Below, in pieces: positions 29,690-29,950 of a stretch of DNA of 64,000 nt. The notes below the pieces were generated by a model. It saw only the letters and a program-made list of their open reading frames with translations. It ran no database searches and was not told where the DNA came from. Where the stretch lies: the NCBI RefSeq assembly GCF_003334385.1, contig NZ_QOWN01000014.1, one strand, 5' to 3'. The stretch's first letter is position 1. Each line of letters begins with the position of its first letter. Origin of the DNA: Escherichia coli. GTDB taxonomy: Bacteria > Pseudomonadota > Gammaproteobacteria > Enterobacterales > Enterobacteriaceae. The translations under genes and the position numbers were made by a program.

Positions 29690-29950
29690 AGGCCTGATAA
29701 GACGCGGCAAGCGTCGCATCAGGCATTGATGTCGGATGCGGCGTAAACGCCTTATCCGACCTACAAAATCACGCTAAATCAGGCTATTGCGCTGTCTGGC
29801 GTAGGCCTGATAAGACGCGTTAAGCGTCGCATCAGGCGTTGATGTCGGATGCGGCATAAACGCCTTATCCGACCTACAAAATCACGCTAAATCAGGCTAT
29901 TGCGCTGTCTGGCGTAGGCCTGATAAGACGCACCAGCGTCGCATCAGGCA
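29690..29950. repeat. Tandem BIME array (about 122-bp unit, roughly 2.3 copies) between yjcO and gltP
   Basis: GTAGGCCTGATAAGACGCG…GCGTCGCATCAGGC…GTCGGATGCGGC…CCTTATCCGACCTACAAAATCACGCTAAATCAGGCTATTGCGCTGTCTGGC repeated. Confidence 0.85.

Follow-up and report, generated by a model that had tools for sequence, protein, structure and literature searches.

Repetitive extragenic palindromes (REPs) of Escherichia coli form clusters, and in the type called BIME-2 a z2 and a y palindrome are combined with a short S linker and a variable flanking linker, in tandem copies whose number varies between strains (PMC3333891). The linkers themselves differ from one BIME-2 to another in both length and sequence (PMC3333891). 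Two described systems are close to the array considered here. First, the cleavage substrate given to TnpA_REP by Ton-Hoang et al. (2012) was "B319", a partial BIME taken from between gltP and yjcO of strain MG1655, and its linker was found to hold four TnpA_REP cleavage sites in vitro (PMC3333891). Second, the REP325 locus, between yjdM and yjdN, gives rise to naRNA4, an HU-binding RNA of about 77 nt (PMC4550694), and its Y+Z2 units are the basis of the Rfam model of the same name.

The yjcO-gltP array of the sequence analyzed here (a 64,000-nucleotide stretch of an E. coli contig, hereafter the window) is almost certainly a BIME-2, and thus an element of an already known kind. It combines Y and Z2 REPs in inverse, head-to-head orientation across a short linker, it is present in tandem and variable copies with the GTAG/CTAC foot, and its site is intergenic. 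The element is also not new as a locus, since it is named in Ton-Hoang et al. (2012); the MG1655 RefSeq record carries no repeat_region feature at yjcO-gltP. The MG1655 BIME that was the source of B319 lies at the same locus and shares its Z2 and Y REPs, 8-nt and 37-nt linkers and flanks with the window. It differs in that it has five units instead of two and a few variant loops, and the MG1655 reference has a 2-bp gap. The loop of the terminal Z2 reads ACCAG in the window and GGCAA in K-12, and identity to K-12 in the flanks is about 98.5%. The other known class, BIME-1 (RIB/RIP; Y + Z1 with an IHF-binding L linker), likewise consists of inverse REP pairs in 3′ intergenic regions. However, BIME-1 elements are single copies with Z1 and a long conserved L linker (PMC3333891), whereas the array in the window is tandem and has Z2 and an 8-nt head-to-head linker; motif parsing found no Z1 motif in it.

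The array lies between the stop codons of two convergent genes, that is, in a 3′ intergenic region: yjcO (Sel1-repeat protein; 28997-29686, + strand, stop codon TAA at 29684-29686) and gltP (glutamate/aspartate:proton symporter; 29990-31303, − strand, stop codon at 29990-29992), both located as open reading frames and named from the best-matching E. coli record. It fills most of the 303 bp spacer between them. Tandem Repeats Finder reports a direct tandem repeat at 29689-29951 with a period of 113, 2.3 copies, 94% matches and a score of 477. Two full copies of 113 nt (29689-29801 and 29802-29914) are 96% identical in the repeat finder output, differing at 4 of 113 positions, and a partial third copy starts at 29915. 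The initial annotation had placed a tandem repeat at 29690-29950, between convergent yjcO and gltP, and the repeat programs and the gene positions and strands agree with it on both points. It had also described the unit as 122 bp long and repeated about 2.3 times: the copy number stands, but the period is 113 bp, and the longer unit must be wrong since 2.3 copies of it would exceed the annotation's own span of 261 bp. The spacer string that was quoted there, AAATCAGGCTATTGCGCTGTCTGGC, occurs at 29776 and 29889, within what is resolved below as a 37-nt linker.

Parsing with REP core patterns gives a simple layout: a Z2 REP, an 8-nt linker, a Y REP and a 37-nt linker, all of this twice, followed by a closing Z2, for a total of three Z2 and two Y. 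Rfam naRNA4 serves as an independent check on the core consensus patterns used. The first Z2 (29689-29724, + strand; motif parsing and RNA folding) runs foot-first, has the loop GGCAA and carries the foot ATAG in place of GTAG; its stem begins at 29692, 5 nt past the yjcO stop codon. The head-to-head, S-type linker ATTGATGT (29725-29732) joins it to the first Y (29733-29764, + strand; motif parsing), which runs head-first and ends in CTAC. This Y is a variant with GTCGG...CCGAC for GCCGG...CCGGC, and the pairing is kept. The first copy of the tail-to-tail linker, AAAATCACGCTAAATCAGGCTATTGCGCTGTCTGGCG (29765-29801), is 37 nt long and is found at the yjcO-gltP locus only. The second unit repeats the plan: a Z2 with the loop GTTAA and a proper GTAG foot before it (29802-29837, + strand; motif parsing), the head-to-head linker GTTGATGT (29838-29845), a second Y with the loop variant GCATAAAC (29846-29877, + strand; motif parsing) and a second 37-nt linker (29878-29914) identical to the first. 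The "0.3" copy is the terminal Z2 (29915-29949, + strand; motif parsing), which is 35 nt long and has the loop ACCAG. Read on the + strand, foot-first Z2 and head-first Y thus alternate inversely and head-to-head, with 8 nt between cores; GTAG precedes the second and third Z2 (GCGTAGGCC), CTAC ends both Y, and the first Z2 alone has ATAG. Folded as RNA, either strand forms separate hairpins one after another and is much more stable than shuffles (z = -9.1 and -9.8). The earlier reading of the locus as REP palindromes plus a spacer, forming a BIME array, is therefore borne out by alternating inverse Z2 and Y, constant linkers, tandem arrangement and matches to Rfam naRNA4.

RNA folding also finds a G+C-rich hairpin of 9 bp, AUUGCCGGG...CCCGGCAAU (29958-29983, − strand), which starts 6 nt past the gltP stop codon. 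This hairpin does not belong to the REPs and lacks a U-tract, and it is kept in every allele examined, including those with zero units.

Two other readings of the repeat were rejected. CRISPR arrays share regularly spaced partial palindromes with the yjcO-gltP array, but here both 37-nt spacers are identical, two opposed types of palindrome alternate, and neither a leader nor cas genes accompany the array. A coding function was likewise set aside: only short open reading frames overlap the array, and the number of units varies from 0 to 9 between strains.

With a query made from the flanks only, the locus was recovered from 5,422 of the 5,426 complete E. coli genomes, and insert sizes were taken from 58 rows spaced evenly down the ranking of flank matches. 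Among these 58 sampled genomes, the DNA between the two flanks is 37 bp long at the shortest and 788 bp at the longest, with sizes spaced about 113 bp apart. The most frequent class, 26 rows, has 37-38 bp (a single Z2 and no unit); inserts of 107-151 bp account for 7 rows, 220 bp for one, 263-264 bp (the window type) for 5, 376 bp for 4, 448 bp for 6, 489-490 bp for 6, 560 bp for one and 787-788 bp for 2. Thirteen alleles were dissected, and they share one building plan with 0, 1, 2, 3, 4, 5 or about 7 units. Strain-variable copy number, proposed as likely in the initial annotation, is thus a matter of observation at this locus. Insert lengths that do not correspond to a whole number of 113-bp units are accounted for by a second allele type (L009-L013), in which the first Z2 has an internal deletion of about 10 nt that leaves a degenerate hairpin beside the yjcO stop codon, and in which the array ends in a diverged linker with no terminal Z2. 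Linkers in this type are also more diverse than in the window-type arrays.

Differences in unit number appear even among close relatives. There are five units in MG1655 (in a spacer of 641 bp), four in EPI300, and two both in K-12 GM4792 and in the window; counted by linker copies, TOP10 has five, and S17-1, C600-p2-V and JW5437-1 (a K-12 MG1655 substrain) have four each. Within K-12, such differences (for example, two units in GM4792 and five in MG1655) could be real change or could reflect collapse of the repeat during assembly. Genomes whose flanks are 99.9% identical to those of the window have two, three or four units, which means that unit number changes faster than point substitutions accumulate. 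The order of the units, as told by their loop and linker variants, is A-B in the window, A-B-B in L004 and A-B-A′-B in L003 and EPI300. These orders fit in-register duplication and deletion of one or two units. It is whole 113-bp units that are gained and lost, in register.

Two routes could produce such changes. One would be replication slippage or unequal exchange between sister strands, acting on near-identical units of 113 bp. The other would be cleavage and rejoining by the REP-associated Y1 transposase TnpA_REP, following the model of Ton-Hoang et al. (PMC3333891).

The 37-nt linker serves as a marker of the array's distribution. It occurs exactly twice in the window, against an expectation of 0 from 100 shuffles, and even with 3 mismatches allowed the window contains no copies beyond the array's two. 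By blastn (E<=1), it is present in 2,805 of the 5,426 complete E. coli genomes, at 1-9 places each with a median of 4; in the remaining genomes neither megablast nor blastn at E<=1 gave a match. The share of genomes without the linker agrees with the share of zero-unit alleles in the 58-genome sample, K-12-type genomes have 4 or 5 linker places, equal to their own unit counts, and in every dissected allele all copies of the linker lie within the yjcO-gltP spacer. The possibility that the linker is a generic dispersed BIME motif was rejected, given that it has no match in genomes lacking it at yjcO-gltP. REPs are genome-wide families, but the composite unit of 113 bp appears to have been amplified in place. 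In the window, motif parsing finds other REP-family copies at 41-322, 2793-2879, 8122-8202, 40407-40483 and 58883-58914; the last four of these are three inverted pairs and one single Y-like REP.

The array also extends beyond E. coli. A scan for the exact linker pattern, covering one genome per bacterial species, found it in three places only: Escherichia whittamii, Escherichia sp. E1V33 and one myxobacterial contig. E. whittamii has two units and Escherichia sp. E1V33 has five, in both cases within the yjcO-gltP spacer. The array is orthologous across Escherichia, and its presence at the same locus in these two lineages implies that it predates the diversification of E. coli. We infer that the alleles with a single Z2 more probably derive from arrays that collapsed than preserve an ancestral empty site. 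The myxobacterial sequence (Pyxidicoccus caerfyrddinensis, NZ_JAAIYA010000177.1) is a contig of 240 bp at 0.53x coverage that consists wholly of E. coli-type array units; most likely, that assembly was contaminated with E. coli DNA.

A second array, at 1-320 of the window, had been likened to the one at yjcO-gltP, and the likeness holds. Tandem Repeats Finder describes it as tandem with a period of 100 and 3.2 copies, a copy number that is a lower bound because the array is cut by the window start. Rfam naRNA4 matches three of its units on the + strand, with 107-111 bits, and the array is very probably the REP325/naRNA1-6 locus of Qian et al. (2015). REP325 (yjdM-yjdN) and the yjcO-gltP array are both tandem arrays of BIME-2 Y+Z2 units matched by the same Rfam family, and each lies downstream of a gene on its RNA-carrying strand. 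They differ in several respects: the period is 100 bp in REP325 and 113 bp at yjcO-gltP, the REP325 linkers are longer head-to-head and shorter tail-to-tail, with sequences unrelated to those at yjcO-gltP, and of the two only REP325 has experimentally observed HU binding and a nucleoid phenotype. Rfam models match two further features of the window. The Hfq-binding sRNA sraL (RF01408) is matched over its full length at 47718-47858 (+ strand; 146 bits), and a selenocysteine insertion element, SECIS_2 (87 bits), lies at 27168-27222 (+ strand), directly upstream of an open reading frame listed from 27224. The region around 27168-27224 is fdhF in the best-matching genome, and the listed frame probably starts just past an in-frame UGA selenocysteine codon.

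The likeness to REP325 raises the question of whether the yjcO-gltP array is primarily a cluster of small RNAs, in which Y+Z2 units expressed from the gltP 3′ UTR would yield naRNA4-like RNAs with two hairpins that, together with HU, would bridge cruciform DNA and condense the nucleoid. Two units do pass the gathering score of Rfam naRNA4 (RF02564; 59.5) on the − strand, which is the sense strand of gltP: 29691-29761 with 79 bits and 29804-29874 with 71.4 bits; the partial third unit, with 49 bits, falls below it. In the work of Qian et al., transcription is reported for about 80% of REPs, and it is the two-hairpin fold rather than the sequence that is reported to be sufficient for HU-dependent DNA condensation in vitro (PMC4550694). 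However, naRNA4 also matches unrelated single Y-Z2 pairs in the window above its gathering score, at 2796-2876 and 40409-40480, so that the model detects BIME-2 units generally. The units at yjcO-gltP score 71-79 bits compared with 107-111 bits in the REP325-type array (44-320), they are 71 nt long with a shorter head-to-head linker against a model of 77 nt, and a complete unit is missing from this locus in about half of E. coli genomes. Taken together, these observations make a primary role as an RNA cluster unlikely. The naRNA4 matches do not establish a dedicated sRNA gene, and a naRNA-like by-product of read-through from gltP is possible but unsupported.

A BIME-2 at this position may nonetheless have effects on its surroundings, and these would be expected by analogy with what other REPs do. 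According to references given in PMC12306157, REP hairpins stop 3′ exonucleases and stabilize upstream mRNA, and BIMEs attenuate transcription. If transcribed from either of the convergent genes, the hairpins of the array would likewise act as barriers to 3′-to-5′ exonucleases and as transcription attenuators. When a REP starts no more than 15 nt past a stop codon, ribosomes stall at termination and translation is reduced (Liang 2015, as cited in PMC12306157). The stem of the first Z2, 5 nt past the yjcO stop codon, lies inside this limit and might lower translation of yjcO in the same way. As DNA, the array could matter through supercoiling. Gyrase cleavage is enriched in BIME-2 elements, with a preference for y REPs, and is independent of transcription (PMC6379681; the text of the supplement to that paper mentions neither gltP nor yjcO), and by analogy the Y REPs of the array are candidate sites of gyrase binding and cleavage. 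BIME-2 elements are also topological barriers located at borders between supercoiling domains (PMC10592627), and an array between two converging transcription units would be predicted to bar the diffusion of supercoils from one to the other.

A more ambitious proposal is that the number of units in the gltP 3′ UTR (0 to about 9) is a heritable, fast-mutating dial, with changes in copy number being adaptive, not neutral. If this were true, the dial would set the dose of a naRNA4-like HU-binding RNA, the strength of a gyrase and supercoiling barrier, and the output of yjcO through the REP 5 nt past its stop codon. We consider it distinctly improbable.

Still less probable is that the palindromes are intrinsic bidirectional terminators of convergent yjcO and gltP that were duplicated by chance. 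Their location between two convergent 3′ ends and the stable hairpins on both strands would suit such a role. Against it, a pattern search of 29500-30150 found 0 sites with a hairpin followed by a T-tract on either strand, the hairpins belong to genome-wide REP families that recur in five other places in the window, and a unit number that runs from 0 to 9 between strains is unlike what would be expected of a required terminator. Attenuation associated with BIMEs, extrapolated from other loci, would be a side property of the array and not an alternative identity for it. Finally, although short tandem repeats are prone to mis-assembly and K-12 GM4792 shows two units where the MG1655 reference shows five, the idea that errors of assembly or sequencing created the repeat, or that a single strain recently duplicated it on its own, can be dismissed with near certainty, given the identical two-unit allele in the independent complete genomes H1 (99.9% over 851 bp), H44 and H46 and the presence of unit and linker in 2,805 genomes and two other Escherichia lineages.

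Recognition of the array as a BIME-2 with near-identical units also bears on variants that have been called at gltP/yjcO in work on evolution and resequencing with MG1655. In an ancestral MG1655 stock, a C>T change at 4,296,060 was reported at a frequency of 0.33 and a +CG insertion at 4,296,380 at a frequency of 1.0 (PMC4330922); a yjcO-gltP insertion was found in 34 of 35 isolates (PMC6120903); and one junction of an ampC amplification was mapped to gltP/yjcO (PMC12625342). In the MG1655 reference (NC_000913.3, 4295795-4296435), the loop of the first Y REP is without the CG that is present in all other units, and +CG at 4,296,380 makes this loop match them. The unit types are told apart by one G/A difference in the 8-nt linker, and this is reference position 4,296,060. 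Since these two calls fall on the Y loop and on the unit-type position, they should not be read as adaptive. For both, the best explanation is not adaptation but a reference that differs from the laboratory stocks, along with cross-mapping between units or conversion of one by another.

In practical terms, the repeat makes short-read mapping and assembly unreliable at yjcO-gltP, and strain typing could make use of the array as a small variable-number tandem-repeat marker. It carries little weight as a discovery: REP and BIME-2 arrays, their variable copy number and the yjcO-gltP locus have all been published. For the biology of E. coli, the array is dispensable, since about half of the genomes have kept a single Z2 and are without any unit, and it may be mostly selfish or neutral DNA.
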